Notes: generated by a model from the sequence alone, not told the origin. A stretch of 64,000 nt of DNA from an uncultured Frankineae bacterium (GCA_902805775.1 CADCUB010000001.1:30234-94233), one strand, 5' to 3'. Counted from the stretch's first letter, positions 11,330-63,191 are shown. Program-made: numbers and translations.

Positions 11330-11869
11330 GTGCCGGCCCTGCTCGTGGCGGCCCTGGTGGTCGTCCCCCTCGTCGAGATCTACGTGCTGCTGCAGGTCGG
11401 GCAGCTGCTCGGTGTGCTGCCGACCGTGCTCCTGCTGGTCGTCATGTCGCTGCTCGGGGCGTGGCTGCTGCGGCGCGAGGGCGCACGCACGTGGCGGGCG
11501 TTCGCCGAGGCGCTGGCCCGAGGTCGACTGCCCGCGGCGGAGGTGGCCGACGGTGCACTGGTCATCTTCGGCGGGGCGCTGCTGCTCACCCCCGGCTTCG
11601 CGACCGACGCCCTGGGGCTGCTGTGCGTGGTGCCGCTGAGCCGAGCGGTCCTGCGCCGCCTGCTCACGCGCGTCGTCGCCCGACGCCTGACCGGCTACGG
11701 GCTCCTCGGTGGGTTGGCGGCCGGCGGGCTCTCGGGCGGCAGCCGCCCGGGCGGGAGCCGGGTCCGCCCGCCGCGACGCCGTCCCGGTCCCGGCCCGGGC
11801 CCGGGTGAGGTGGTCGACGGCGAGGTCGTCCGCGGTCCCGACGACCCGCCCGCGCCCCACGGGCGGTGA
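11330..11869 (+). CDS. fxsA: FxsA family membrane protein
   Basis: GTG 11330, in-frame part of ORF 11156..11869. PLVEIYVLLQVGQLLG...LLGAWLLRREG...ALVIFGGALLLTPGFATDALGLLCVVP is the FxsA signature. The C-terminal tail is Gly/Pro/Arg-rich. Confidence 0.8.
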   Translation: MPALLVAALVVVPLVEIYVLLQVGQLLGVLPTVLLLVVMSLLGAWLLRREGARTWRAFAEALARGRLPAAEVADGALVIFGGALLLTPGFATDALGLLCVVPLSRAVLRRLLTRVVARRLTGYGLLGGLAAGGLSGGSRPGGSRVRPPRRRPGPGPGPGEVVDGEVVRGPDDPPAPHGR

Positions 11870-11898
11870 GCGGCCGCTCGCGTCCCGTGGGCGGCCGC
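11870..11898 (+). terminator. possible stem-loop terminator after fxsA
   Basis: GCGGCCGC (11870-11877) and GCGGCCGC (11891-11898) are self-complementary, giving an 8-bp GC stem with a 13-nt loop immediately after the TGA. There is no T-tract, which is common in high-GC actinobacteria. Confidence 0.3.
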
Positions 11899-11969
11899 GG
11901 TGCAGCGAGGCACACGGCGTCATGTCATGCTGACCGTGGGCGACCGGGACGAGCAGCGACGGGAGGACC

Positions 11970-13112
11970 GTGCCCTCCAGCGACGACCGAGCGGACGACT
12001 GCTCCGCAGGGCCTCCGGACCTGCTGCGTGACCGGGCCCGGCTCCGCGCGCTCCTCGACTACCGCGCGGCCGGTCCCCTGGCCGACCCCGGGCTCGACGT
12101 CGACCGGCTGCTGGAGCGGTTGAGCCTCGAGCTGCGCACGCAGCTCAACGCCGTCCTCGGGTTCGCGCAGCTGCTGCGGCTCGACGTCAGCGAGGGTGAC
12201 CGCCAGGCGGCCGTCGACGAGATCCTGCGGGCGGGCGGCGAGCTGCAGGTGGTGCTGGCCCGGCTGGTCGGCGGCGGGGAGCTGCCGGCCCCGCTGGCCG
12301 CCGCCGCGCCCGTCGACCTGCGGGAGGTGACCCGCAGCGCGGTGGCGGGGACGACGTCCGCCGCCGGACCGCGGGTCGAGGTGCGGGAGGACCCGACACC
12401 CGGCCCGGACGTGCTGATCTCCGCCGACCCGGACCTGCTCGACGCGGTCGTGCGGGAGGCGGTGCAGGCCGCCGTCCGCCGGGCGCGTTCCACCGTCTCC
12501 TGGTCCTGCGTGCCCGGGCAGGGCCGTGCCGTGCTGACGCTGGTCGCCGACGGCCCGCCCGCGCACGGCGCCTCGGCGCCGACGGACCTGGGCCTGGCCG
12601 TCGCCCGTCGGCTGGCCGGCCTGCTCGAGGGCAGCCTGTCGACGGTGCCGCGGCCGGACGGCGAGCCGGTCCTGGTGCTCGAGCTGCCGGGCGCCGGAGC
12701 CGAGCCGTCGGCCGCTGCTCCGGCGCCGGCCGACCTGTCGGTGCTCTACGTCGAGGACAACGACTCCAACGTGCGGCTGGTCGAGCGGCTGCTCGCGCGC
12801 CGGCCGGGCACCTCGCTGCACGTGGCCCGCACGGGGGAGGAGGGCCTGGCCCTCGCGCGCTCCCGGCGGCCCGACCTGGTCCTGCTCGACCTGCACCTGC
12901 CCGACCTGCCCGGCGAGGAGGTCCTGGACCGGCTGCTCGCCGAGCAGGGCCTGCCGGTCGCGGTCCTGAGCGCGGACGCCCTGCCGGCCAGGGTCGACGA
13001 GGTGCTCGGCCGCGGCGCCGTCGCCTACCTCACCAAGCCGCTGGTCGTCGCAGAGCTCTACGCCGTGCTCGACGCCGTGCAGGCGCGGCGCCACGGGGAG
13101 CAGGCGTCCTGA
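11970..13112 (+). CDS. degenerate histidine-kinase-like domain fused to an intact receiver domain
   Basis: 380 aa. The HisKA-like helix LSLELRTQLNAVLGFAQLL has Leu where the phospho-His sits in the neighbouring kinase (MSHELRTPLNAILGFGQLL). The N-box Asn and G1/G2 glycines are also missing. The C-terminal REC looks intact (VLYVEDND, LVLLDLHLPD, VLSAD, YLTKP). Confidence 0.8.
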   Translation: MPSSDDRADDCSAGPPDLLRDRARLRALLDYRAAGPLADPGLDVDRLLERLSLELRTQLNAVLGFAQLLRLDVSEGDRQAAVDEILRAGGELQVVLARLVGGGELPAPLAAAAPVDLREVTRSAVAGTTSAAGPRVEVREDPTPGPDVLISADPDLLDAVVREAVQAAVRRARSTVSWSCVPGQGRAVLTLVADGPPAHGASAPTDLGLAVARRLAGLLEGSLSTVPRPDGEPVLVLELPGAGAEPSAAAPAPADLSVLYVEDNDSNVRLVERLLARRPGTSLHVARTGEEGLALARSRRPDLVLLDLHLPDLPGEEVLDRLLAEQGLPVAVLSADALPARVDEVLGRGAVAYLTKPLVVAELYAVLDAVQARRHGEQAS

Positions 13113-50252: not shown

Positions 50253-50912
50253 TCAGCGACCGAGCCCGGCGTCGCGGGCCCGGACGATCGCCTCGGCCCG
50301 CCCGGCCACCTGCAGCTTGGCGAAGATCGCCGACACGTTGTTGCGGACGGTCTTGGGCGACAGGTACAGCGCCGCCGCGATCTGCGCGTTGCTGCGCCCG
50401 GCGGCGACCAGTGCGAGGACCTCCCGCTCGCGCTCGGTCAGCTCCGGGAACGCCGGGCCGTCGCTCGCCGCCGGCGCCGGCGACCGCGCGGCCGTGCTGA
50501 AGTAGGCGGCCGCCCGGCGCGCCAGAGCCGGGCCGAGGATGAGCTCGCCGCCGGCGACCGCGCAGATGGCGCGGGCGATGTCGTCCTGTCCGGCCCCCTT
50601 GAGCAGGTAGCCGCGGGCGCCGGCACGCATGGCGGCGAACACGCTCTCGTCGTCCTCGTACATCGTGAGGACGAGCACGGCGAGGTCCGGCGCGTCGGCG
50701 ACGACGGCTGCGGTCGCGTCGATGCCGTTCAGGCCGGGCATCTGCAGGTCCATGACGACGACGTCGGGCCGCAGCTCGCGGGCGCGCTCGACGGCCTGGC
50801 GTCCGTCCGCCGCGACACCGACCACCTCGATGCCGGACAGGCTGCCCAGCAGCATGCTCAGGCCGTCGCGGTAGACCGGGTGGTCGTCGCAGACCAGCAC
50901 GCGCAGCGTCAT
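50253..50912 (-). CDS. NarL/FixJ (LuxR-type) response regulator
   Basis: 219 aa. REC motifs: VLVCDDHP, VVVMDLQMPGLNG, YLLKG. LuxR HTH: LTEREREVLALVAAGRSNAQIAAALYLSPKTVRNNVSAIFAKL. ATGA overlap with the upstream kinase reading frame. Confidence 0.9.
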   Translation of the reverse strand: MTLRVLVCDDHPVYRDGLSMLLGSLSGIEVVGVAADGRQAVERARELRPDVVVMDLQMPGLNGIDATAAVVADAPDLAVLVLTMYEDDESVFAAMRAGARGYLLKGAGQDDIARAICAVAGGELILGPALARRAAAYFSTAARSPAPAASDGPAFPELTEREREVLALVAAGRSNAQIAAALYLSPKTVRNNVSAIFAKLQVAGRAEAIVRARDAGLGR

Positions 50913-52423
50913 GCGTGCACCCGGGCGTGCGGGCCGGCCTGCTCGGGCACCGTCGGCCGCAGCGGCAGGCGGACCCGTACGACCGTGCCGCCCGACGGCG
51001 GGCAGGCGACGCTGACGTCGCCCCCGAGCTCGTCGGCCCGCTCCCGCAGCGACACCAGCCCCACGCCCACCGTCGTCTGCTCCGGGATGCCGACCCCGTC
51101 GTCGCGCACCTCGACCGTCAGGGCCGCGCCCCGCTCGAGGACGACGGTGGCGGTGGACGCGCGCGCGTGCCGGACGACGTTGGCCAGCGCCTCCGACACG
51201 ATCCGGTAGGCGGCGACCTCGACCGCGGCCGGCAGGCCGGTGAGGTCGTCCCGGCTGAGGACCTCCACGTCGAGCCGGTGCTCGCCCTCGTCGCGGCGCA
51301 GCCGCGCGGCGAGCTGCTCGAGCGCCCCGACCAGACCCAGCTCGTCCAGCGCCGGCGGGCGCAGGCCGTGCACCAGGCGGCGGACGTCGGCGAGCACCGC
51401 CCCGACGTCGGCGACGGTGTCGGCGAGCAGCGCGTCAGCCCGCTCCGGTGCGCGGGAGTAGAGGTTGCGGGCCGTCTCCACCCGCAGGGACAGCGCGCCC
51501 AGGGCCGGGCCCAGGCCGTCGTGCAGGTCCCGGCGCAGCCGGCGCCGCTCCTCCTCCCGGGCCTGCACGAGAGCCTCCCGGCCGGTCTGCAGCTCCTCGG
51601 CCAGCAGCGCGGCCCGGTGCGCCCCGCCGCCTGCCGGACGACGTCGGCGAGCAGCCGCTGGTCGTCGTCGGACAGGCGCAGCCCGGCGGGCGGCGAGAGC
51701 ACCAGGCGACCGATCTGCTCACCCCGGTAGGTGACCGGCAGGTCGAGAGTGCGCCCGCCGGGATCGCCGTGCTCGGCGACGACCAGCGAGCCGTCGCTGC
51801 GCTCCAGCTCGACGCGGACGTAGCGGGAGGAGAAGGCGGCTCCGACCGACCGGGCCACTGCCAGCAGCTGCGCGTCGGGGTCCGAGCTGTCCTCCAGCCG
51901 CTCCGCCAGCGCCGAGACGACCTCGTACGGGTCGTCCCGGCGTCCGCGCAGCAGCCGCCGCACCCCGTGCTGCAGGCGCACGCGCAGCGGGCCGTAGAGC
52001 ACCCCGACGACGGCCACCGCGACCAGGGCCGACTCCCGGCCGGTGACCAGGGAGCCGGCCAGGGAGAACACGGCGATGTCGATGCCGACCACGAGCGCCG
52101 CGAGGGCGCCGTAGAGCAGCGTCCAGCCCAAGCGGCACGGGCAGCATGAGCACCGACCCCACACCCAGCGCGAAGAAGTACGCCGCCGCTGCGCCGAGCG
52201 TGCCGGGGGCGGTGTGCAGGGAGTGCACCTGCCAGCCGGCGGCGACCGCGTCGACGCACCACAGCAGGCCGCCGACGGCCATCACCCAGCCGACCGGATG
52301 GCTGCCGAGCCGGCGCAGGAGCAGGCACCCGGGGAGGGCCAGCGCGAGCCCTTGCAACGCGGAGGACCAGGCCGGGTAGCTCTCCCCGGGGACCACCGTG
52401 GCCCGGTTGAGCAGGTCGAGCAC
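50909..52423 (-). pseudogene. HisKA_3-type sensor histidine kinase split over three reading frames by two frameshifts
   Basis: Frame A (track ORF 51719..52423) has credible TM helices up to ...GVGSVLMLPVPLG. Frame B (51118..52164) is credible from WTLLYGALAALVVGIDIAVF to ...LLADVVRQAAG. Frame C (50909..51568, extendable upstream as AHRAALLAEELQTGREALV) carries QAREEERRRLRRDLHDGLGP plus the HATPase domain. The junctions lie near 52110-52150 and at a C4/G4 run at 51622-51625. The true N-terminus is unresolved. Confidence 0.6.
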
Positions 52424-52703: not shown

Positions 52704-54194
52704 TCAGCCGTCCTGCTCCTGCGCGCCGGGCACCGGGCTGCCGGTGTAGACGAAGATCCGGCCGCTGTCGTGACGCTGGTACAGCCGGCCGCCGGACGCC
52801 GCGATGTCCACCGTCGCGGGGTTGTCGTCCAGCTCCTGCCAGCCCGTCCCGGGAGTGCCGGTGGAGGAGTAGACGCGGCCGCTGCTGTGCCGCTGGTACA
52901 GCGCACCGCCGTCCGCGACGATCTGCACGGTCGCCGGGTTGTCGTCCAGCTGCTGCCACCGCGGCTGCGAGGCCTCGCGCCGGAAGCGCACGACGCGTGG
53001 CACCACCTCGTTGCGCGTCCCGCCGCCCTCGAGCGTGAAGCCGGCGGCGACCCACCCGCTCCCGTCGGGTGCGTCCCGTCGGCAGGTGAGGTAGTCGCCC
53101 CACTTCGGCTCGCCCGGAGCATGGGTGCCCGGGCTGGTCACGACGCTGGTCCACGCTCCGGCGGCGTCGTCGCGCACCCCCACCACGTGCCCCGGAGGTC
53201 GGTCCGCCCCACCGTGGAACGCGGTGAAGGCCAGCACGCCGTCGGCGTTGGCAGCGGCGGCGGGATAGGCCCAGGCACGGCTGTCGTGCCAGATGTCCGG
53301 CTCGTCGACGACCTGCTTGGACGCCTCGCCGATCCGCACGCAGCGGCAGTACGCGTGCGGGCGGCCCGGCTTGCTGCCTGCCGTCCACAGGAAGGTGATC
53401 GTGCCGTTGCCGACAGCGCCACCGGTGATGCGGGAGTCGGCCCTGCCGAGCCAGTCGACGCCGTTGGGCCCTGTCGAGGAGATGTCACCGCTCCAGGCGC
53501 CCACGGGCACGTCCCACCAGGACAGGCCGGTCGCCGCGTCCGGCCAGGCGAACAGCCGCAGCTGGTCCAGCCTGTTGTGGCTCGCCCAGTACATCGTGTG
53601 GGTCGCGCCCTGCGTCAGCCGCAGCGAGCCGTTGCTGGTGGTGGACCAGTGGGAGAACGACAGGTTGCCGCCGGCGGCGAGGGCGTCCAGGGGGAAGCGC
53701 ATGACCGACGCGCGCTTCCAGGCGTCGGAGGCGTCGAACATGTTGAAGGTGACCACCAGGTGCTGGTCGGTGAGGGCGGCGTCCGGGTAGTCGAACCACT
53801 GCCCGGCGAAGGCCGCGTCGAGATGGGTGGGCGCGATGTCCCACCAGCCCCAGCTCCCGCTCGCGAAGTCACCGTCGGAGGTCACCGCGATCCGGAAGAC
53901 GTTGGCGCCGTCCTGCGCGATGTACTGCAGGATCCAGATCCACAGCCCGCGCGCGTCGTCGTGCAGGGTGACCTGGTCGCAGCAGAACCCGCCCGCGGCG
54001 GCGGGCAGAGCGGTGAAGGGGTCCACGTGGGTCCACGACGCTCCCCCGTCCGTCGAGCGGCTGGCGTACCAGTTGCCGGTGACGAACAGCTGGTCGCCGG
54101 AGGATCCGAGGGACGGCTCGCCGACCGTCGAGGTCCTGCCGCCGGTCGCGGCGTCCTGCAGCCCGGCGTTGACGGCGAGGGTGATGGCGGACAT
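52704..54194 (-). CDS. BNR/Asp-box beta-propeller-like protein with two C-terminal 39-aa repeats
   Basis: 496 aa with no signal peptide. Asp-box SRSTDGGASW. The C-terminus has WQQLDDNPATVQIVADGGALYQRHSSGRVYSSTGTPGTG followed by WQELDDNPATVDIAASGGRLYQRHDSGRIFVYTGSPVPG (117-nt period, 52725-52958). Confidence 0.75.
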   Translation of the reverse strand: MSAITLAVNAGLQDAATGGRTSTVGEPSLGSSGDQLFVTGNWYASRSTDGGASWTHVDPFTALPAAAGGFCCDQVTLHDDARGLWIWILQYIAQDGANVFRIAVTSDGDFASGSWGWWDIAPTHLDAAFAGQWFDYPDAALTDQHLVVTFNMFDASDAWKRASVMRFPLDALAAGGNLSFSHWSTTSNGSLRLTQGATHTMYWASHNRLDQLRLFAWPDAATGLSWWDVPVGAWSGDISSTGPNGVDWLGRADSRITGGAVGNGTITFLWTAGSKPGRPHAYCRCVRIGEASKQVVDEPDIWHDSRAWAYPAAAANADGVLAFTAFHGGADRPPGHVVGVRDDAAGAWTSVVTSPGTHAPGEPKWGDYLTCRRDAPDGSGWVAAGFTLEGGGTRNEVVPRVVRFRREASQPRWQQLDDNPATVQIVADGGALYQRHSSGRVYSSTGTPGTGWQELDDNPATVDIAASGGRLYQRHDSGRIFVYTGSPVPGAQEQDG

Positions 54195-55564: not shown

Positions 55565-56572
55565 ATGACGGAGTCGCCGGCGAGTAGTCGCCCCCGTGAC
55601 GGCCTGTCGTCGCCCGGACTCGTGGACGTGAGGAAGCGGATGGCACCCTCGCTCGTGTACGTCCACGGCATCGGCAACAAGCTGCCGCGTGTCCCGTTGA
55701 CGCGCCTGTGGGACGCCGCCCTCTTCGGCGACGACTCCCGGTCCTCCTCGCGCATGGCCTACTGGGCGGACCTGCGCTACCCGCGGCCGTTGCCCGAGAG
55801 CGCGACGTCCGCACCGCCGTCCGACGGCGTCGTGTCGGTGCCCGAGAGCGCCGGCGGCGGCAGCGATCCGACGGCCCCGGAGGAGTTCGTCGAGGCAGTC
55901 CTGCGGGAGGCGGCGGGCTCGTCCGGGCGCCGGGCGCCGGAGTCGGCTGAGCCCGAGGCAGCCGCTGTCCCCCCTCCGGGCCTGGTCGCCTGGGGGCAGC
56001 GGATGACCTACGTCGCGGATGCGCTGGCTCGCGGCGCGGCGCCGGCCGCATCACAGCAGGAGGTCTTCCCGGGACCGAGGGCGGTCCGGCAGGCCGTGTT
56101 CCGCGCGCTGGTCGAGCGGGCCCTGAAGGACGTCCACGCCTACTTCTTCGGTGGGCAGCGGGAGCCGGTGCAGGACCGGCTGCGCGAGGTCCTGCAGGCG
56201 GTGGACGGGCCCGTGGTGCTCGTCGCCCACAGCCTCGGCTCCGTCGTGGCCTACGACGTGCTCCGGTCGTGGCAGGGCCCGGCACGGGAGGTCCCCCTGC
56301 TGGTCACCCTTGGCTCTCCACTGGGCACCGAGGAGATCCAGGACCTGCTGGTACGGCCGCTCCAGGTGCCCGACGGCACCGACCGCTGGCTCAACGCCTG
56401 CGACACCCGGGACGTCGTCGCCCTCGACCCGACGCTCCGGCGGGAGTTCCCGCCGGCGGAGCGGGTCTCGGACAGCATCGTCGACAACGACAGCGACAAC
56501 CACCACGGCATCGAGCCGTACCTGCGTGCAGCGGTGGTGCAGCAGGCCGTGCACGCCGCGCTGGCCGGCTGA
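55565..56572 (+). CDS. alpha/beta-hydrolase (lipase/esterase-like) protein, operon gene 1
   Basis: 335 aa. Beta-1 LVYVHGIGNK, nucleophile elbow VVLVAHSLGSVVAYDVL, then LVTLGSPLG, DTRDVVA and NHHGIEPY as candidate Asp/His. A low-complexity insert of about 110 aa follows the first strand. Alternative start at ATG 55640 (GAGGAAG upstream). Confidence 0.8.
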   Translation: MTESPASSRPRDGLSSPGLVDVRKRMAPSLVYVHGIGNKLPRVPLTRLWDAALFGDDSRSSSRMAYWADLRYPRPLPESATSAPPSDGVVSVPESAGGGSDPTAPEEFVEAVLREAAGSSGRRAPESAEPEAAAVPPPGLVAWGQRMTYVADALARGAAPAASQQEVFPGPRAVRQAVFRALVERALKDVHAYFFGGQREPVQDRLREVLQAVDGPVVLVAHSLGSVVAYDVLRSWQGPAREVPLLVTLGSPLGTEEIQDLLVRPLQVPDGTDRWLNACDTRDVVALDPTLRREFPPAERVSDSIVDNDSDNHHGIEPYLRAAVVQQAVHAALAG

Positions 56573-56604
56573 GCCGGCTGCTCCTGAGCCCCGAGGAGGC
56601 CCCC

Positions 56605-57537
56605 GTGCCCGACCGGACGGACCGCGACGACCCCCACGCCCCGGTGACCAACGTCGTCCGCACGCAGGACAGCACCGTGCAGACGCGGCTCGCCGTACCG
56701 CCGGTGCTGGGCTCGGCCCGCCCGGTCGACCCGACCGATGCAGGTGCGGAGGCGGTCGGGGACTCCGGCCTCCGGCTGGAGGCGGCGGTCGAGACCACCG
56801 CTCCCGACGTCCACCTGCCGGACATCGGCGCGGCGTCGTTCGGCGGCGCGGACGTCCAGCTGGAGACCGTCCACGGCAGCGACGACCGCAGGCAGGTGCA
56901 GGAGACGGCGCGCTACCCGTGGTCCGCGACCGCGTCGCTGCTCATCACGACCCGGGACGGGGCGCAGTGGATCGGCACGGGGTGGTTCGTCAGTCCGCGC
57001 ACGCTCGTGACCGCGGGGCACTGCGTGTACATCACCGGCAGCGGGGTCCCGGGACGCGACGGCTGGGTCCTGAGCATGCAGGTCCTGCCCGGCCGCAACG
57101 GCACGTCCCTGCCGTTCGGCGCCGTCACCGCCTCGCAGTTCTGGACCGTGCGCGGCTGGGTCGACGGCGGCGACGAGAACTACGACTACGGCGCCATCGT
57201 CCTGCCGTCCCCGCTGGGCGAGACCGTCGGCACCTACGGCTTCGCCGTCCTGCCCGACGACGAGCTGGCGGGACGGGTGCTCAACGTCGCCGGCTATCCG
57301 GGGGACCAGCCCCCCGGCACGCTGTGGTACGGGTCGCGGACGGTCGCGGCGCTGGGGCCGTCGAAGGTGCACTACGACATCGACACGGCCGGTGGCCAGA
57401 GCGGCGCGGCCGTCTACGTCATCGAGGACGGCAAGCGCCTGGGGGTGGCGGTGCACGCCTACGGCGGCCCGACCACCAACTCCGGGACCCGCATCTCGCC
57501 CGAGGTCTTCCGCAACCTCTCGGACTGGCAGGTGTGA
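56605..57537 (+). CDS. S1B (glutamyl-endopeptidase/V8-like) serine protease without signal peptide, operon gene 2
   Basis: GTG 56605 (GAGGAGG 5 nt upstream) within ORF 56269..57537. 310 aa. Catalytic triad contexts: TLVTAGHCV, NYDYGAIVL, DTAGGQSGAAV. The N-terminal region of about 95 aa is polar with no hydrophobic leader. Confidence 0.85.
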   Translation: MPDRTDRDDPHAPVTNVVRTQDSTVQTRLAVPPVLGSARPVDPTDAGAEAVGDSGLRLEAAVETTAPDVHLPDIGAASFGGADVQLETVHGSDDRRQVQETARYPWSATASLLITTRDGAQWIGTGWFVSPRTLVTAGHCVYITGSGVPGRDGWVLSMQVLPGRNGTSLPFGAVTASQFWTVRGWVDGGDENYDYGAIVLPSPLGETVGTYGFAVLPDDELAGRVLNVAGYPGDQPPGTLWYGSRTVAALGPSKVHYDIDTAGGQSGAAVYVIEDGKRLGVAVHAYGGPTTNSGTRISPEVFRNLSDWQV

Positions 57538-57595
57538 ACCGCCGCCGCCGCCGCCGTCGGCCGCCTCCCCTCGGCCGCGCCCGGGGAGCGGCGCC

Positions 57596-58657
57596 GTGCT
57601 GACCGACGACGAGCGCCACCTCGTCACCGCCGGCCTCCTGCGCGTCGTCGCGCTGGCCACCTCGCCACGGCAGACGCTCGTGGTGGCCCTGCACGAGACG
57701 CTGCAGGAGCGGCTCGGCGAGGGCGAGCCGCGCGTGCTCGTCGAGCGCGCTGTCGACCTGTGCCTGGAGGACGGCTACCGACAGGATCCTCCCGCCCTCG
57801 TGCACCTCCTGCAGACGCTCCTCGTCGCACTCGACCCCGAGGTTGAGCGGATCGCCAGCCGCCTGCGCGAGCCGCCGCCGGAGCTCGACGACCCCTTCGA
57901 CGCGGTCGTCCTCGTGAGCAAGCTGCCGTTCCTCGACCGGCAGTCGACGCGCGCCGCGCTGCGGCAGTTCCTGCAGCGGACGCCCCTGCAGCCGGTCGTC
58001 GTCGTCAACGGACCGGCACACGGCAAGACCTTCACCGGGGACTTCGTCGACCACGTCCTGTCCCCCTGGCCGAAGGTCCGGCACTGCCGCGTGCACCTCG
58101 AGGAGCGCCAGGGCGGGTCGACCGGCCCCGCCGAGCTCGCCTCGGACCTCGTCGCCACCATGGGCGGGAGTCCCGCGAGCGCTCCGCCCGCCAACACCAA
58201 CCTCGACCGCTGGGTCCAGGACCTCGTCAACTGGGCGCTGAGCGTGGCGAACGCGTCCGACTGCAGCTGGTGGTTCGTGCTTGACGGCTTCAACGCCGAG
58301 GAGCTGCGCCCCGACACCCAGCTGCTCATCGCCAAGCTGGCCAAGAGCCTGACCACCGGGGTGGCACGGGAGCGCCACCGTCTCGTCCTCACGGACTTCG
58401 ACCGGACCGTGCTGCCGCTGCAGCCGGGGCTCATCGCGGTGGAGACGACCGCCCCCATCCCCCGCGCCTCGGTGGCGACCGCGGTCGCCCAGGTGCTCTC
58501 GCGGGCGCCCGCGCCGGTGGACCCGGCGCCCGTCCTCGAGCGCGTGCTGCGGGACCTGGGCGATCCGGTCAGCGACCTGCGTGAGCTCGGCCTGCGGCTC
58601 ACCGACCTCATCGCGAGCGTCGGCGAGCCCCTGCCGGCCAGGCCCGGCCCGCCGTGA
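57596..58657 (+). CDS. N-terminal helical adaptor-like domain plus degenerate P-loop NTPase-like domain, operon gene 3
   Basis: GTG 57596 (GGGGAG upstream) within ORF 57392..58657. 353 aa. Walker-A-like VVVNGPAHGKTF has Asn in place of the first Gly. Walker-B-like WWFVLDGFN. The N-terminal 100 aa share the AVDLCLEDGY...LVHLLQ motif with genes 4 and 5. Confidence 0.78.
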   Translation: MLTDDERHLVTAGLLRVVALATSPRQTLVVALHETLQERLGEGEPRVLVERAVDLCLEDGYRQDPPALVHLLQTLLVALDPEVERIASRLREPPPELDDPFDAVVLVSKLPFLDRQSTRAALRQFLQRTPLQPVVVVNGPAHGKTFTGDFVDHVLSPWPKVRHCRVHLEERQGGSTGPAELASDLVATMGGSPASAPPANTNLDRWVQDLVNWALSVANASDCSWWFVLDGFNAEELRPDTQLLIAKLAKSLTTGVARERHRLVLTDFDRTVLPLQPGLIAVETTAPIPRASVATAVAQVLSRAPAPVDPAPVLERVLRDLGDPVSDLRELGLRLTDLIASVGEPLPARPGPP

Positions 58658-61536
58658 GCGAGCCGCCCACGACGACCGAGTCGCTGCTGCAGGCGCTGGA
58701 CGCGCGGATCGGCGCCCGGCAGGAGAGGGCCGCCGGCGCGCCGTCCCGCCGCACCTCCGTGAACCCCCTGCTGCAGGCGGCCGCGGTCCTGCACGTCTTC
58801 GACCCCACTGCGTTGCGGTCCGTGGGGACCGGTGGCTCCGCGTCGGACGCGGCCCTGGTCGAGGTGCTGCACGCGTCGGTGCCTGCGATCGGCTGGCGCG
58901 GCGCGGGGCTGCGCACCCTGCGGCTGCAGGTCCGCCGCACCGCCCTGCGCGAGCTGGGGTCGCGGACGGCCATGCGGGCGGCGCTCACGGCGAACCCGGA
59001 CCGGGTGCAGACCGAGCTGCAGCAGCAGTTCGAGCGGTGGCTGGGCGACGACGGGTTCGCGCTCGACCGCATGGCCTACGTCGAGCTGGAGGCGCTGCGC
59101 CAGCTCTACGACTGGGGTCTGGCGAGCTCCGACGGCGCCCTGCCGCCGGTCGAGCTCGTCGAGCGGGCGCGGGCCCGTCGCTCGACCGTCGCCGTCTTCG
59201 AGCACCTGGTCGACGAGGACTTCGTCGGCCGGGCGGAAGAGCTCGCGCTCCTCGAGGGACACGTGCGCTCGCCGGGCGGCGTGCCGCTGGTCATCTGGGG
59301 TCCGGGCGGCGCCGGCAAGACCGCCCTCGTGGGGCGCTTCCTCATCCGCTACGCCGAGGACCCGGAGGCCGGCTGGTTCCCCTTCGCCTACCTCCCCTTC
59401 GACTCCGAGACCCTGGACGTGCGTGAGCCGTTCACGCTGCTGCTCCCCGCCGCGACGCAGCTGGGCAACCAGGCGGGGGCCGCCCAGGGGCCGTCGGCGC
59501 CGACGGAGGCCGCGCGCCTCCGGGACGCGCTCCAGCGCTTCACCTCTGCCGTGGGCGACTACCGCGACCGTCGAGGGGCACTGCGCCGGCGGGCCAGCGA
59601 CGTCGAGCAGCGCGTCGCGCGGCTGGACAGCCTCTCGAGCGCCGACGTCGCGCTGTACGACGCGTTCGCCGACGTGCTCGAGACCGCCGCCGAGATCACG
59701 GTGCCGCCGTGGGACACGGTCCTGCTCGTGTTCGACACCTTCGAGGAGGTCGTCTACCGGGCAGCGGAGGACCTGCTCGGCTTCTGGTCGATGCTCGAGC
59801 ACCTGCAGCGCCGCCTGCCGCGCCTGCGTGTCGTCATCGCCGGCCGCGGCCGGCCCGACCCCGCCTCCACCGCGGCGATCCCCCTGCGCCAGGTCGTGCT
59901 CGGCGATCTGGACGAGGACGACGCCGTACGCCTGCTGGGCAAGCTGGGCGTCGACGACCCGGCCCTGGCACGTCGGGTGGCGCACCAGGTCGGAGGCAGC
60001 CCGATGTCGCTGCGGCTCGCGGCGAGCGTCGTGACCGCCGAGGGGGCCGGGGACCACGGCCTGCAGGGGCTGTCGGTGCACAAGATCGGACCCGAGCTCG
60101 TCCGCGGCCACCTCTACCGGCGGCTGCTCGACCACATCCACGACGAGGACGTCAGGGCGCTGGCGCATCCCGGCATGGTGCTGCGGCGGGTGACGCCGAC
60201 GATCATCGAGCGCGTCCTCGCGCCGGCGTGCGACCTGCCGGGCGTGTCGAGCGCTCGGGCGGTCGAGCTGTTCGAGGAGCTGCAACGGGAGCAGTCCCTG
60301 GTGAGCCTGGACAAGGACGGCTCGCTGCACTACCGGGAGGACGTCCGCCGCCCGGTGCTCCAGCTGCTGGCCCACGACGCGCCGGCCTCCGTCCGGCTGC
60401 TCCACGCCTACGCCGTGGAGCACTACCTGCACTCCGCAGCGCCCGCGCACCGGGCGGAGGAGCTGTACCACCGGATGATGCTCGCTCAGCCGCCGGAGCA
60501 GCTGGACGACCGCTGGCTGCCCGGCGTCGAGAGGTTCCTCGCCTCCGCCATCGAGGAGCTGCCCCTCGAGCAGCGCCGCTGGCTGGCCGGCAGGATGAGC
60601 ATCGAGCTGCCCGCGGAGGTCTACCGGCTGGCCCACCTCGGCGAGTGGGAGCGCCTGGTCGGACGCCGAGCGCTGCAGCTGCTGCGCTACGGGGGGCCGG
60701 CGGCCGTGCTGGACCTGCTGTCGGAACGGCCGGAACGGACACCGGGCAGCCCGTTGTCCGCCGTCGAGGCGCGGGTCCTGCTCGACCTGCAGCGGCCGCA
60801 GGACGCTGCTTCGCTGCTGGACGGGGCCCTCGCCGAGTTCCCCGCACTCGGCAATCCGGGACGCCTGGCCGAGCTGCTCTGGCTGCGCACGCAGGCGGCG
60901 GCGGTGCTCGGCGAGAGCTCGACGCGCCTCGCGCTCCTGCACCGGCTCGTCGACGTCACGGCCGGCATGCACTCGTCGCTGGCGCACGTCCAGGCCCTCA
61001 CCGAGCTGCTGGGGGCCCTGGACCCCGACAGCCGTCCCGACGCCGTGGGCGAGGCGGGGCGCGTCCGTCCGGCGCTCGCCCAGGCCCTGGGTCGGCTGAC
61101 GCAGGACGAGATCGCGACCGAGAGGTCACTGGTCCGCCTGGCGCTGGTCCGGCTCGGGCCGCACTACCCGTCGCTGGTGGCCCAGCTGGCGCCGCTCGTC
61201 CTGTTCGACCTGACCTACCTCGCCGACTCGGGCCTGGTCGACCTGCTCCCCGCCCTGCCCCGGGTCCGTGAGCTGCTCGCCGACCTGCTGCCGTCGGACG
61301 GCGCGCCCGCAGGCGACGGGCGCGCGACGGCCGGTGTCGTCGCCGAGCGCATCGTGTCGGCGCTCGCACGCAGGACGCGGGCGGAGGAGGGCGGAGCCCC
61401 GCTCGCGCGCCTCGCGGCGGGCGTCCTGCTCCTGCTGCGCGCGGAAGGGGCCTCCCTGTCGGGCTCCTCCCTCGCCGGGCTCGAGGACTACCGGGAGACC
61501 TGGGAGCTGGAGACGACACGAGAGGTGGCGGGCTGA
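58654..61536 (+). CDS. STAND-class P-loop NTPase (AAA_16/NB-ARC-like) with N-terminal adaptor-like region and C-terminal helical-repeat domain, operon gene 4
   Basis: 960 aa. GTG overlaps the gene 3 stop as GTGA. FVGRAEELALLEGHV...PLVIWGPGGAGKTALV is Walker A and VLLVFDTFEEV is Walker B. It continues with RVVIAGR, LGDLDEDDAVRLL, GGSPMSLRLAA, then about 450 aa of Leu/Ala-rich helical repeats. Confidence 0.88.
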   Translation: MSEPPTTTESLLQALDARIGARQERAAGAPSRRTSVNPLLQAAAVLHVFDPTALRSVGTGGSASDAALVEVLHASVPAIGWRGAGLRTLRLQVRRTALRELGSRTAMRAALTANPDRVQTELQQQFERWLGDDGFALDRMAYVELEALRQLYDWGLASSDGALPPVELVERARARRSTVAVFEHLVDEDFVGRAEELALLEGHVRSPGGVPLVIWGPGGAGKTALVGRFLIRYAEDPEAGWFPFAYLPFDSETLDVREPFTLLLPAATQLGNQAGAAQGPSAPTEAARLRDALQRFTSAVGDYRDRRGALRRRASDVEQRVARLDSLSSADVALYDAFADVLETAAEITVPPWDTVLLVFDTFEEVVYRAAEDLLGFWSMLEHLQRRLPRLRVVIAGRGRPDPASTAAIPLRQVVLGDLDEDDAVRLLGKLGVDDPALARRVAHQVGGSPMSLRLAASVVTAEGAGDHGLQGLSVHKIGPELVRGHLYRRLLDHIHDEDVRALAHPGMVLRRVTPTIIERVLAPACDLPGVSSARAVELFEELQREQSLVSLDKDGSLHYREDVRRPVLQLLAHDAPASVRLLHAYAVEHYLHSAAPAHRAEELYHRMMLAQPPEQLDDRWLPGVERFLASAIEELPLEQRRWLAGRMSIELPAEVYRLAHLGEWERLVGRRALQLLRYGGPAAVLDLLSERPERTPGSPLSAVEARVLLDLQRPQDAASLLDGALAEFPALGNPGRLAELLWLRTQAAAVLGESSTRLALLHRLVDVTAGMHSSLAHVQALTELLGALDPDSRPDAVGEAGRVRPALAQALGRLTQDEIATERSLVRLALVRLGPHYPSLVAQLAPLVLFDLTYLADSGLVDLLPALPRVRELLADLLPSDGAPAGDGRATAGVVAERIVSALARRTRAEEGGAPLARLAAGVLLLLRAEGASLSGSSLAGLEDYRETWELETTREVAG

Positions 61537-62633
61537 TGGCGACCGAGCAGCTCCCTGCGCAGCAGCTGGACGCCGTGCGCACCGCCCTGCTGGAGGTGCT
61601 GGGCTACGACGCCGCGACCCGGGGAGCGCTGCTCACGGGCCTGCCCGTGGCGGTGCGGGGACTGCTGCCCGGCGGGCAGGCCGCCCCTGCCATCGGGCTC
61701 GCGCTCGACCTCGGATTCCTGAACGGGATCGGCCGGCTGGCGGACGGCACCGTCCCGATCAAGGTCCTCCTCGAGCGCGCGGTCTCGCTCGCCGGGCCGA
61801 TCGAGGCGGCGGACGTCGTGCGCGACGCGCTGTCGGAGGTCGAGGCGCGGACGAGCGGGGCGCCGCCCGTGGTCGTCGCCGGACTGCCCGAGCTGAAGGA
61901 GGCGGTGGTCCTGCGCGACGACATGGTCCCGTTCGGCTTCCTGCACGGCGGCCTGGCCGCCGCGCGGGCGGTGGCCAAGCTGATGGTGACGCGGCACGAC
62001 GACGGCCGGCCCACGCTGGTCTCCGGCAAGCCCGTCGTCCACCTGGGCACCGGATGGCTCGTCGCTCCGGGTCTGCTCATGACCAACCACCACGTCGTCG
62101 CCGCACGGGCGCAGGGCGACGCTCCCCCGAGCGCGGCCGACCTGCGTGCGCAGGCCGTCGGCATGACGGTGCTGTTCGACTACGACGACGACGCCACCAC
62201 GGGCACCGCCGTCGAGGCGGTCGAGCTCGTGGCCGCCGACCCCGGTCTGGACTACGCGCTGGTGCGGCTGGCGGACGCGGGGCGCCCGCCGCTCACGCTG
62301 TCGACCGAGCCGGTCGCCGCCGTGAGCCCCGGCCAGGAGATCGCGATCAACGTCATCCAGCACCCCGACGGCCGGTCGAAGCGCTTCGCTCTCCGCAACA
62401 ACGTGCTCACGGCCGCCACGCCGACCGAGCTCCGCTACCTCACCGACACGCTGGGGGGCTCGTCCGGCTCGCCGCTGCTCGACGACACCTGGCAGGTGGT
62501 GGGACTGCACCGCGGCAGCACCTTCGTCAGCGGAGTGCAGTTCCAGGGCCGCAGGGTCGCGTGCGTCAACGTCGGCACCCCCATCACGGCGGTCCTCGCG
62601 CACGCCGGGCCCCACCTGCCGGGCCCCGTCTAG
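61536..62633 (+). CDS. N-terminal adaptor-like domain fused to trypsin-like (S1/DegP-like) serine protease, operon gene 5
   Basis: 365 aa. The ATG overlaps the gene 4 TGA by 1 nt. Triad contexts: LLMTNHHVV, GLDYALVRL, TLGGSSGSPLL. The N-terminal 110 aa are helical with ALDLGFLNGI...ADGTVPIKVLLERA. No signal peptide. Confidence 0.88.
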   Translation: MATEQLPAQQLDAVRTALLEVLGYDAATRGALLTGLPVAVRGLLPGGQAAPAIGLALDLGFLNGIGRLADGTVPIKVLLERAVSLAGPIEAADVVRDALSEVEARTSGAPPVVVAGLPELKEAVVLRDDMVPFGFLHGGLAAARAVAKLMVTRHDDGRPTLVSGKPVVHLGTGWLVAPGLLMTNHHVVAARAQGDAPPSAADLRAQAVGMTVLFDYDDDATTGTAVEAVELVAADPGLDYALVRLADAGRPPLTLSTEPVAAVSPGQEIAINVIQHPDGRSKRFALRNNVLTAATPTELRYLTDTLGGSSGSPLLDDTWQVVGLHRGSTFVSGVQFQGRRVACVNVGTPITAVLAHAGPHLPGPV

Positions 62634-62651: not shown

Positions 62652-63191
62652 TCAGCTGCCGGCGGCGTCGGCCTTCCTGGCCAGAGCGTCGACCGCCGCC
62701 GCCAGGAGCACGGCCCCCACCACCGCCACCATGACCCTCACCAGGGACGAGGTCTCCAGACCGAGCGCGTCGAAGGCCGTGCTCGGCTGGATCATCGTCC
62801 ACAGCACGAAGGCCGCCGCAGCGATCGCGCCCCGCAGCAGGTGGAGGCCCTCCACGCTCTTCGCTCCCACGAGGTAGAGGCCGAACGCCAGCAGGACCAG
62901 GACGACGAACACGACGCGCATCTCGTCGGGCGCGGTGATGACGGTGGTCCGTCCCTCGCCCGTGCCCGACGTCGTCGTGCCGATGGTCATGGCGACCGCG
63001 TGCAGCCCGAGCACCTCGGCGGGCACGAGCGCGGTCAGCGCGTCCTGCCAGTGGCTGACGGTCCCGGTCGCAGTGCCGGCGATCGGAGCGCCGGACGTGC
63101 CGCCGGGCGCCGACTCGGCCATCGCGAGCCGTGACCGGGGGCTCGTCGCCTGTCGCCGGCGCGACAGCGACCCGTACAGCAAGGAGCTCAT
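62652..63191 (-). CDS. hypothetical integral membrane protein (3-4 TM)
   Basis: ATG 63191 (GGAGG 5 nt upstream) within ORF 62652..63224. TM segments include VVFVVLVLLAFGLYLVG, AIAAAAFVLWTMI and VMVAVVGAVLLAAAV. Convergent with gene 5 across an 18-nt gap. Confidence 0.65.
   Translation of the reverse strand: MSSLLYGSLSRRRQATSPRSRLAMAESAPGGTSGAPIAGTATGTVSHWQDALTALVPAEVLGLHAVAMTIGTTTSGTGEGRTTVITAPDEMRVVFVVLVLLAFGLYLVGAKSVEGLHLLRGAIAAAAFVLWTMIQPSTAFDALGLETSSLVRVMVAVVGAVLLAAAVDALARKADAAGS

Follow-up and report, generated by a model that had tools for sequence, protein, structure and literature searches.

A five-gene operon occupies positions 55565–62633 of a 64,000-nucleotide stretch of DNA from an uncultured Frankineae bacterium (GCA_902805775.1 CADCUB010000001.1:30234-94233; this whole stretch is hereafter the window). 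Judged by its homologies and domain architectures, the operon is an uncharacterised variant of the bacterial CARD-NLR immune and cell-death systems. Its genes, called g1 to g5 below, encode an α/β-hydrolase, a V8-like protease, an adaptor joined to a small nucleotide-binding domain (NBD), an NLR-like STAND ATPase and an adaptor-tagged trypsin. The preliminary description of this DNA had found no named system to match the combination, a view that can be given up: the operon falls in the CARD-NLR, effector-associated domain (EAD)-coupled STAND class, that is, in a catalogued class of adaptor-linked NTPases described computationally (Kaur et al. 2020, 2021) and studied experimentally (Wein et al. 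2023; Banks et al. 2026). What is new is the split adaptor-NBD/adaptor-protease layout and the effector pair of α/β-hydrolase and protease. The genes and domains concerned are these:

55565..56572, + strand: g1, cytoplasmic α/β-hydrolase, lipase/phospholipase-like, elbow AHS223LGS, a variable effector (sub-threshold Pfam matches, orthologues)
56605..57537, + strand: g2, S1B (V8/glutamyl-endopeptidase-like) serine protease, triad H139/D194/S266, with a pro-region of ~88 residues (Pfam, PDB)
57596..58657, + strand: g3, adaptor-NBD protein (profiles; AlphaFold2 predicted local distance difference test score, pLDDT, 88.6)
57596–57880, + strand: six-helix CARD/EAD1-like domain of g3, residues 1–95, helices within 4–90 (AlphaFold2 model)
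57941–58621, + strand: minimal STAND-type NBD of g3, residues 116–342 (Walker A NGPAHGK144T, Walker B FVLD230G)
58654..58657, + strand: GTGA, shared by the stop of g3 and the start of g4, translational coupling (read from the sequence; similar overlaps or near-abutting junctions in many related loci)
58654..61536, + strand: g4, NLR-like STAND ATPase of 960 residues (Pfam AAA_16, motifs, homologues), comprising a conserved helical N-terminal domain (1–190), then the NBD, then a C-terminal helical region that is the presumed sensor
61534..61538, + strand: TGATG, shared by the stop of g4 and the start of g5, translational coupling (read from the sequence)
61536..62633, + strand: g5, adaptor-protease (Pfam; AlphaFold2 pLDDT 90.3)
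61551–61946, + strand: EAD5 domain of g5, residues 6–137 (Pfam EAD5, E 6.5e-24, 84.7 bits)
62028–62531, + strand: trypsin-like domain of g5, about residues 165–332 (Trypsin_2, E 2.6e-22; triad H186/D239/S310)

Relationship to CARD-NLR and other systems

A tblastn search of plasmids with g4 led to a three-gene operon on pPNAP01 of Polaromonas naphthalenivorans, which encodes a 601-residue 'serine protease' (CARD-trypsin-ATPase), a 984-residue ATP-binding NLR and a 311-residue non-specific endonuclease, and which was assigned to CARD-NLR by architecture, not by DefenseFinder. The ATPases of Polaromonas and of Paracoccus sp. SMMA_5_TC are both listed as structural homologues of LypB (Banks et al. 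2026, supplementary file 7). Among the NLRs, the g4 profile reaches 214 bits with that of Polaromonas (profile positions 28–657), 484 bits with that of Paracoccus and 181 bits with that of Caulobacter rhizosphaerae; against the LypA-like Polaromonas protease, the profile of the g3 NBD gives 77.7 bits in the C-terminal domain (363–600) and the g5 trypsin domain 46 bits at residues 133–322. Because the profiles of g3, g4 and g5 all match proteins of the Polaromonas operon, the window operon can be taken as homologous to the CARD-NLR class, and g4 is placed by its profile among the CARD-NLR-clade ATPases. By the same kind of comparison the LypA-type protein is split here into an adaptor-NBD protein (g3) and an adaptor-protease (g5), and the same split, in the order protease, g3-like gene, NLR, is found on the Paracoccus and C. 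rhizosphaerae plasmids.

In the three-gene type (Azospirillum; LypABC), LypA consists of a CARD, a trypsin domain and a divergent ATPase, LypB of an N-terminal domain, an Orc1-like ATPase and TPR repeats, and LypC of a trypsin domain and an endonuclease; the CARD of LypA binds LypB's N-terminal domain, and the protease serines and the Walker residues of LypB are essential (Banks et al. 2026). With this type, pPNAP01 included, the window operon shares an NLR-like ATPase with a conserved helical N-terminal domain, a homologous small ATPase-like domain, a trypsin-like, adaptor-tagged protease, and the order adaptor/ATPase protein, NLR, protease-bearing protein; LypC-like trypsin–Endonuclease_NS fusions, moreover, occur in loci related to it. 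It differs in that the single polypeptide of LypA is divided, g3 and g5 flanking the NLR gene, the former without a protease and the latter without an NBD. In addition, LypA is reported to be without the conserved Walker residues, while a conserved GK[ST] P-loop is present in g3, and the effector module is an α/β-hydrolase with a V8-type protease instead of an endonuclease.

The four-gene systems of Lysobacter and Pedobacter combine two trypsin-like proteases, one with a CARD-like N-terminus seen crystallographically, an NLR-like ATPase and an exchangeable effector, and their defence against phage requires the CARD, the protease and the ATPase (Wein et al. 2023). The window operon resembles the gasdermin operon of Lysobacter enzymogenes and the phospholipase-endonuclease operon of Pedobacter rhizosphaerae in having two trypsin-like proteases, one with an N-terminal six-helix adaptor, beside a STAND/NLR-like ATPase whose unassigned helical N-terminal domain measures about 150–190 residues, and in the logic by which a protease acts on an exchangeable effector (there a gasdermin, an endonuclease or a phospholipase). 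No separate adaptor-NBD gene is described in the four-gene systems and their gene order is different, whereas the adaptor of the window system is a Pfam EAD5 domain, its effector is an α/β-hydrolase, and no CARD-like C-terminus is found in g4 by profile comparison.

Under the EAD principle, a core NTPase component and an effector encoded beside it each carry a copy of one adaptor, and the two copies are proposed to pair (Kaur et al. 2020, 2021). EAD5 is one of these effector-associated domains, and the EAD-coupled NTPase and NucA-trypsin operons of those authors bring together several peptidases, NucA and, in some cases, STAND proteins; the pairing of α/β-hydrolase and peptidase was noted there too. 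EAD5 was, however, defined in the ternary systems of MoxR, vWA and VMAP, and none of those genes was found here. A ternary system of that kind (VMAP/iSTAND) was rejected as a candidate since neither the operon nor the 30 other window genes scanned against Pfam, of about 49 outside the operon, contains a MoxR, vWA or VMAP match.

There is a further likeness to AVAST type I and its nuclease–protease pairs, in which a STAND-linked trypsin-like protease cleaves a separately encoded proenzyme effector and the effector–protease pair is a mobile module shared between systems (PMC12799240). Avs1b carries its protease in one chain with the STAND part, and an MBL-fold nuclease serves there as effector, as against the adaptor recruitment proposed here and an α/β-hydrolase. 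AVAST type I itself was considered and set aside: g4 has no Avs match in PADLOC, the sole Avs1b signal covers 23 residues of g2 (E 0.058), and there is no MBL gene. The main text of the 2026 STAND survey (PMC13581612) does not discuss the architecture. As for eukaryotic counterparts, the Apaf-1 and CED-4 apoptosomes are among the best structural matches of g3 and share its CARD-then-NBD layout, as well as the proposed sequence of oligomerisation, adaptor-mediated protease recruitment and activation by proximity. The proteases here are trypsin-fold enzymes, not caspases, the presumed sensor repeats sit on the separate, paralogous g4, and the likeness is at the level of fold (12% identity).

Conserved core and exchangeable effectors

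One genome per species was scanned for the g4 family, which gave 34 loci with a g4 relative. Wherever the contig extends far enough to show it, in 31 loci, a g3 gene stands immediately 5′ of g4, and a g5 orthologue stands immediately 3′ of g4 in 29 of the 34. Where g5 is missing downstream, the contig or fetched stretch ends just past g4 (L014, L022), g4 itself is frameshifted (L033), or a trypsin gene is found upstream of g4, which itself carries a fused TIR domain (L024) or fused EAD1 and trypsin (L030). Hosts of the core belong to the Actinomycetota, Alpha- and Gammaproteobacteria, Bacteroidota, Acidobacteriota, Deinococcota and Desulfobacterota, with Myxococcota added by g4 relatives from the protein search, and the order g3-g4-g5 is kept in about 30 genomes of at least 7 phyla.

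It might have been expected, as the preliminary description implied, that all five genes are conserved together. The survey of homologues limits this to g3-g4-g5, with g2 present in 11 of the 34 loci and g1 in three. Since the remaining genes vary among loci, the conserved core is, on this comparison, g3-g4-g5, and g1-g2 are one of several interchangeable effector modules. A PLD protein of 500–585 residues directly precedes g3 in 10 loci of Bacteroidota and Acidobacteriota; trypsin–Endonuclease_NS fusions of 617–687 residues are found in four loci; a trypsin–Endonuclease_1 fusion accompanies a g1 orthologue and an extra trypsin in two Streptomyces loci and in one related actinomycetotal metagenome-assembled genome; and a subtilase gene follows the core in L001 only. 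The exchangeable cell-killing effector that characterises CARD-NLR systems has its counterpart in these related loci and, as an α/β-hydrolase, in the window. Subtilases are among the effectors of the CARD_NLR subtypes in DefenseFinder.

Three of these loci are of some interest in themselves. The distant g4 homologue of L024 (9905-13585) ends in a CAP12/Pycsar-type TIR domain and that of L030 (9773-13612) in EAD1 and trypsin, the stand-alone adaptor-trypsin gene having moved upstream in both. In Bradyrhizobium manausense (L033:10001-11546) the g4 homologue is in two overlapping out-of-frame pieces with no g5 after them, apparently a copy of the system in decay.

Operon structure

The calls of the five + strand genes across 55565–62633 are backed by a third-codon-position GC of 0.93–0.96 and an open reading frame (ORF) filter, in a window of 74% G+C. 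The tight same-strand packing described earlier, with its overlaps and its gaps of 32 and 58 nt, proved exact when the sequence was read again. The g1 stop at 56572 is followed after 32 nt by the GTG start of g2 at 56605, with a ribosome-binding site, GAGGAGG (56593–56599), standing 6 nt 5′ of that GTG, and the g2 stop at 57537 is followed after 58 nt by the GTG start of g3 at 57596, with GGGGAG at 57583–57588. Overlaps of 1 nt or 4 nt of the g4/g5 type recur in L001, L002, L003, L005, L008 and other related loci. A scan for consensus promoters and terminators gave nothing, as is expected at 74% GC.

The motifs on which the first assignment had relied are present as claimed (AHSLGS at g1 221–226; GPGGAGKT at g4 216–223; LLVFDTFEE at g4 357–365), and alignments of homologues show the catalytic and nucleotide-binding residues to be all intact and conserved. 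That the five proteins lack signal peptides was likewise borne out by hydropathy inspection of their N-termini, without formal SignalP; none of the five has a 19-residue hydropathy window above 1.5 or a hydrophobic segment of transmembrane grade. A secreted pair of protease and lipase was therefore ruled out.

The NLR-like ATPase and the adaptor-NBD protein

Pfam AAA_16 matches g4 with 37.8 bits against a cut-off of 32.6, and a protein search found 112 homologues. The motifs FVGR190–193, GPGGAGK222T, LLVFD361TFEE, GGSP447–450 and LAH505PGM can be read in order along the chain, the first and the last two being candidates for the hhGR motif, the GxP motif of the helical lid and the MHD-like histidine of the winged-helix domain; in an alignment of 27 sequences G216, G218, G219, K222, D361, E364 and E365 are invariant, as are G447 and P450 of GGSP and the whole of LAHPGM, and g4 carries the Walker A and Walker B motifs of a STAND ATPase. 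The preliminary description put about 450 residues of helical repeats in g4. Pfam finds no TPR in g4 itself; its homologues include proteins named as TPR proteins at source and two with Pfam TPR matches, and the C-terminal region is conserved in the 27-sequence alignment. No DNA-binding domain was detected in g4 or in the 27 aligned homologues.

The 353-residue g3 product matches nothing in Pfam, NCBIfam or PADLOC. A Foldseek search with its model gave as top matches Avs3, the Apaf-1 apoptosome, CED-4 and ORC/Cdc6, and the alignments with Apaf-1 (365 columns) and CED-4 (404 columns) exceed the roughly 250 columns of NBD-only matches by about 100–150, which is consistent with a CARD-then-NBD layout. 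The NBDs of g3 and g4 align by hhalign with 95% probability (E 4e-8) and are, on that comparison, taken to be paralogues. R115 and R119 of g3 are invariant.

The P-loop of g3 had been called degenerate. It is indeed non-canonical (NGPAHGKT) but not decayed, since it is conserved in 151 family representatives (G139 and G143 100%, K144 91%, S/T145 99%). The Walker B aspartate D230 is 99% conserved in the same set, and the residue after it is G or N, not a second acidic one; the unusual but conserved P-loop together with this substitution suggests that the g3 NBD may bind nucleotide and hydrolyse little of it. The label of a second minimal P-loop protein undersold g3, a CARD-like adaptor fused to a STAND-type NBD that is homologous to the C-terminal, ATPase-like domain of LypA-type proteins. 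The g3-type family comprises 1778 clusters at 50% identity, and relatives carry EAD1 (Pfam), caspase or CHAT N-termini. One metagenomic protein (P0336, 1012 residues, broken off at the contig end) unites EAD1 with a mini-NBD of g3 type and an NLR of g4 type, a natural fusion which, by the Rosetta-stone argument, suggests that g3 and g4 act as one unit.

The adaptor-protease and the kinship of the adaptors

The triad of g5 is invariant in alignments of 25 and of 39 sequences. The closest solved folds are FAM111A, Rv3671c/MarP, Esp/V8 and DegS, the whole-model Foldseek result being dominated by the protease part; human FAM111A is the nearest solved relative of the protease domain both by profile and by fold. 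Many of the EAD5-trypsin homologues (P0136-P0221) are labelled 'endonuclease G, mitochondrial' by JGI, probably through annotation transfer from trypsin-NucA fusions.

In the AlphaFold2 model of g5 helices are predicted at 8–21, 26–32, 38–41, 51–63, 74–86 and 90–107. The EAD5 core (8–107) is thus modelled wholly as a six-helix bundle, with a short strand only in the linker, in contrast to the α+β fold predicted for EAD5 by Kaur et al. Because the modelled core is all-helical, EAD5 may belong with the helical, Death-like adaptors. The N-termini of g3 and g5 have the same six-helix pattern in their models, with helices of similar length and spacing; hhalign relates the two domains with a probability of 62–75% (E about 7e-5, 46–58 columns) in two independent alignment sets, and the hidden Markov model (HMM) of the g3 N-terminus scores 13 bits on that of g5. 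The g5 N-terminal domain has no sequence match to any solved CARD-like domain, and searches of PDB sequences with profiles of g3, g4 and g5 returned no bacterial CARD-like structure, only ORC/Cdc6 and proteases.

The g3 adaptor lies nearer to EAD1 than to EAD5. On the Paracoccus plasmid the profile of the g3 N-terminus matches both an 'EAD1-containing protein' (the NCBI name; 35 bits) and, with 22.9 bits, the N-terminal end of the trypsin beside it, and in L030 (30.6 bits) and L024 (15.8 bits) the stand-alone trypsin carries a g3-like adaptor. In these three cases both adaptors are, to judge from the profiles, clearly of one type, as the EAD principle predicts. A six-frame search of the window found no further copy of EAD5 or of the g3 N-terminus. 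HMM searches with the adaptor profiles were negative for the accessory effectors of the related loci (PLD, trypsin-nuclease fusions, subtilase), which for that reason look like substrates, not recruited partners.

The hydrolase and its partner protease

The first assignment of g2 to the S1B proteases is upheld by a match to PDB entry 1p3c (E 1.4e-18) and one to V8 (about 2e-9); Pfam gives Trypsin_2 and Trypsin, and the triad H139, D194, S266 is conserved across 12 orthologues. Residues 2–202 of the mature 1p3c enzyme align to residues 89–298 of g2, which places the mature V8-type N-terminus at residue ~89, behind a polar pro-region of 88 residues that g2 keeps. There is no sign of secretion in the form of a hydrophobic N-terminal segment (maximum 19-residue hydropathy 0.38 over the first 40 window starts). 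Given that the pro-region is present and a signal peptide absent, g2 is predicted to be a cytoplasmic zymogen. Its N-terminus shows no similarity to the adaptor profiles. Orthologues of g2 lead the operon in 11 loci of four phyla.

The start of g1 is probably the ATG at 55640 (Met26), since the alignments with the 80 metagenomic and three genomic homologues begin no earlier than residue ~26. AHS223LGS, the D280/D283 region and NH313H314G are invariant among four homologues, and the elbow region has a weak match to group XV (lysosomal) phospholipase A2. Orthologues stand directly 5′ of g3 in L028, L029 and L032.

A metagenome scan with the g1 alignment found 143 relatives, and 80 loci were kept. 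The hydrolase is fused to a C-terminal subtilase in 25 of these (about 800 residues) and to an S1 protease in three, adjoins an S1 protease gene in 16, ten of which also hold the g3/g4 core on the same contig, and stands once (L065) in the order g1-g3-g4-g5(EAD5)-trypsin; the contig was too short to judge in 22, and 13 show neither a protease nor the core. A serine protease, fused or adjacent, or the core is therefore tied to the g1-type hydrolase in 45 of the 58 informative metagenomic loci. Loci in which a g1 orthologue adjoins the core itself number three among genomes and at least 11 among metagenomes, and their gene orders vary.

The fusions with S1 proteases are single ORFs (L038:3054-5051, L054:1490-3469, L059:2170-4875). 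The protease of L038 is closely homologous to g2 (g2 HMM 355 bits), and in these fusions the domains follow one another as the separate genes g1 and g2 do in the window. The fusions with subtilase (Peptidase_S8) come from about 25 soil and freshwater loci (L079, L084-L117; for example L102:7866-10259); no g3/g4 core is visible on any of the 25 contigs, and to judge from their sequences they may be an independent family of hydrolase–protease pro-effectors.

V8-type enzymes such as GluV8 and Esp require a processed N-terminus. In the hydrolase–protease fusions the hydrolase precedes the pro-region of the protease, and for these two reasons we infer that the g1/g2 arrangement is that of a zymogen and pro-effector.

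Proposed mechanism and its alternatives

The core logic of the preliminary description, namely a STAND sensor, adaptor-recruited proteases, caspase-like activation and a hydrolase as effector, finds support in homology and architecture. The homologies, domain architectures, synteny, intact catalytic motifs and modular exchange of effectors are matters of observation, and on them we consider it reasonably probable that g4, g3 and g5 act through g2 and g1 to kill the cell. We infer five steps, which cover what triggers the system, in which order the proteins make contact, what is cleaved, the substrate of g1 and the defence phenotype. The C-terminal helical region of g4 would bind a trigger, most likely a phage protein, upon which its NBD would oligomerise in an ATP-dependent manner. 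As helper and adaptor, g3 would co-assemble with g4 through its NBD and display its CARD-like six-helix domain on the oligomer. The EAD5 six-helix domain would then recruit g5 to g3, to the N-terminal domain of g4 or to both, with activation by induced proximity. Next, the g2 zymogen, the g1 pro-hydrolase or both would be cleaved, freeing g2 of its 88-residue pro-region and un-gating g1. Finally g1 would harm the cell, probably at its membrane lipids, with death or growth arrest before the invader completes its cycle.

A more specific version, which we offer tentatively, is that g4 as sensor and g3 as helper, a CARD-bearing mini-NLR, co-oligomerise as a pair like NAIP–NLRC4 or the sensor-helper NLRs of plants, which drives a two-tier cascade of serine proteases from the initiator g5 to the cytoplasmic zymogen g2 and so un-gates a g1 pro-effector by proteolysis.

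Several points weigh against reading the operon as a CARD-NLR immune and cell-death system. The window comes from a metagenome-assembled genome. The Pfam matches of g1 (Abhydrolase_6, Ser_hydrolase, PGAP1 and LCAT, around residues 204–286) each lie under the gathering threshold, and g1 and g2 are missing from most related loci, the former from 31 of 34 and the latter from 23. The relation between the g3 and g5 N-termini is weak by sequence, and in structure searches neither domain came out as a Death fold; residues 1–190 and 800–960 of g4 compare with the g3 and g5 adaptors at an hhalign probability below 1%, so that a CARD-like domain in g4 is unsupported. PADLOC-DB v2.0.0 gives nothing significant for g1, g3 or g4 (for g2 and g5 weak generic trypsin matches only), and NCBIfam has no meaningful match for the operon proteins. 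The suggested location in a defence island is not seen in the 64-kb window: there is no defence gene or island among the 30 scanned genes, and no g4 relative was found on the viral contigs scanned. When 86 ORFs flanking 12 related low-GC loci were compared with PADLOC, with no control, a few defence-family matches came up (OLD/GajA-type, DRT-type reverse transcriptase, subtilases, caspase), which for want of that control are a hint only. Finally, LypABC shows that homologous systems can serve host-controlled lysis and not defence (Banks et al. 2026).

This last point leads to the main rival, that the same machine is used for host-controlled lysis or developmental cell death, whether the release of GTA (gene transfer agent) or prophage-like particles or the sacrifice of compartments in a filamentous actinobacterium. 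LypABC is needed for GTA-mediated lysis, is not part of any defence island and has a regulator of its own that represses it tightly, the scanned neighbours in the window are likewise housekeeping or metabolic, and systems of this kind are enriched in multicellular bacteria, Frankia being the record holder for EAD1 proteins (Kaur et al.). We nevertheless think this reading rather unlikely. The family is spread patchily over many phyla and swaps its effectors, as conflict systems typically do, some related loci have genes for OLD nuclease, DRT-type reverse transcriptase or AbiEii beside them, the Lysobacter and Pedobacter relatives confer phage defence, and the scanned window genes include no GTA or prophage genes.

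It is improbable that g1-g2 form an independent, degradative or processing pair of hydrolase and protease that merely lies upstream of a system consisting of g3-g4-g5 only. The absences of g1 and g2 just noted would fit such an arrangement, as would the 25 hydrolase–subtilase fusions without a core on the contig. Against this, the same-strand gaps of 32 and 58 nt are too small for a promoter region of normal size, g1 stands beside the core in 14 or more genomic and metagenomic loci and g2 heads 11 loci in four phyla, and both proteins lack signal peptides and occupy a slot filled elsewhere by PLD, nuclease, TIR or subtilase proteins.

Still less probable is it that g5 is a satellite effector of a MoxR-vWA ternary system (VMAP/iSTAND with EAD5) elsewhere in the genome and not a partner of g3-g4, even though EAD5 was defined in such systems, additional effectors with an EAD tag often have their genes apart from those of the core, and only 64 kb of the genome is visible. 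The g5 gene shares nucleotides with the g4 stop codon and comes after g4 in about 29 loci from various phyla, and in relatives the adaptor of the partner trypsin co-varies with that of g3; the scanned window genes contain no MoxR or vWA, and the six-frame search found no other EAD5 or g3-type adaptor. That g4 is a STAND transcription regulator of MalT, LAL or AfsR type governing the neighbouring protease and hydrolase genes is very improbable: many actinobacterial regulators are STAND ATPases with helical repeats and one distant homologue has a weak TPR_MalT match, but neither g4 nor its 27 homologues have a DNA-binding domain, its partners are adaptor-tagged proteases, and it is homologous to the LypB/CARD-NLR clade, which is set apart from MalT and SWACOS by Banks et al.

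Genomic surroundings

The preliminary description placed the operon in an accessory-looking stretch. An adjacent histidine kinase is indeed split over three frames, but the scanned genes are housekeeping or metabolic, or lack a Pfam match (five of the 30). They include glycine-cleavage P and H proteins, MerR regulators, an FHA protein, DUF881 and DUF1290, lipid and sugar-nucleotide enzymes, a carboxylesterase, a TauE exporter, a two-component pair and sugar and amino-acid metabolism.

The broken histidine kinase (50909-52423, − strand) stands beside an intact LuxR-type response regulator (50253-50912); its HisKA_3 and HATPase_c domains are intact at 50909-51568 and its membrane and sensor part lies in ORFs 51118-52164 and 51719-52423, the split being due either to a pseudogene or to frameshift errors of metagenome assembly. 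A 496-residue ORF at 52704-54194 (− strand; strong coding signal, third-position GC 0.95; no Pfam match) has at its C-terminal end two tandem repeats of ~45 residues (WQQLDDNPATVQIVADGGALYQRHSSGRVY / WQELDDNPATVDIAASGGRLYQRHDSGRIF), possibly a lectin- or propeller-like module. Directly 3′ of the operon and convergent with g5 is a 179-residue ORF (62652-63191, − strand) with hydrophobic stretches and no Pfam match; as far as checked it is not kept beside the system in other loci.

On a Caulobacter rhizosphaerae plasmid (L037), genes for an AbiEii/AbiGii toxin and a DUF6088 protein (11462-12693) lie ~4 kb from the operon of protease, g3-like gene and NLR; this is one of the few clear defence-gene neighbours of the system family.

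Implications

The general principle at work in this operon has already been published with experimental support, and the present finding would extend it and not overturn it. MBL pro-nucleases are un-gated by proteolysis, by the STAND-linked trypsin of AVAST I and in Hachiman, and further classes of proenzyme have been suggested by the authors of that work (PMC12799240). The system described here may add protease-controlled, lipase-like α/β-hydrolases to the short list of proteolytically activated effectors, which holds gasdermins and MBL nucleases.

If g4 and g3 do form a pair of sensor and helper, hydrolase–protease pairs, whether linked to trypsin or to subtilase, would be a new mobile class of pro-effectors parallel to the nuclease–protease pairs. 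If the five-step mechanism holds, this widespread family shows bacterial NLR systems able to spread adaptor, ATPase and protease over separate proteins, which brings them nearer to the multi-protein logic of eukaryotic apoptosomes and inflammasomes than the fused Avs proteins come. The separation makes the proposed contacts straightforward to test. Few NLR-type defences have been characterised in the Actinomycetota, and the specificity of a trigger there would be new.

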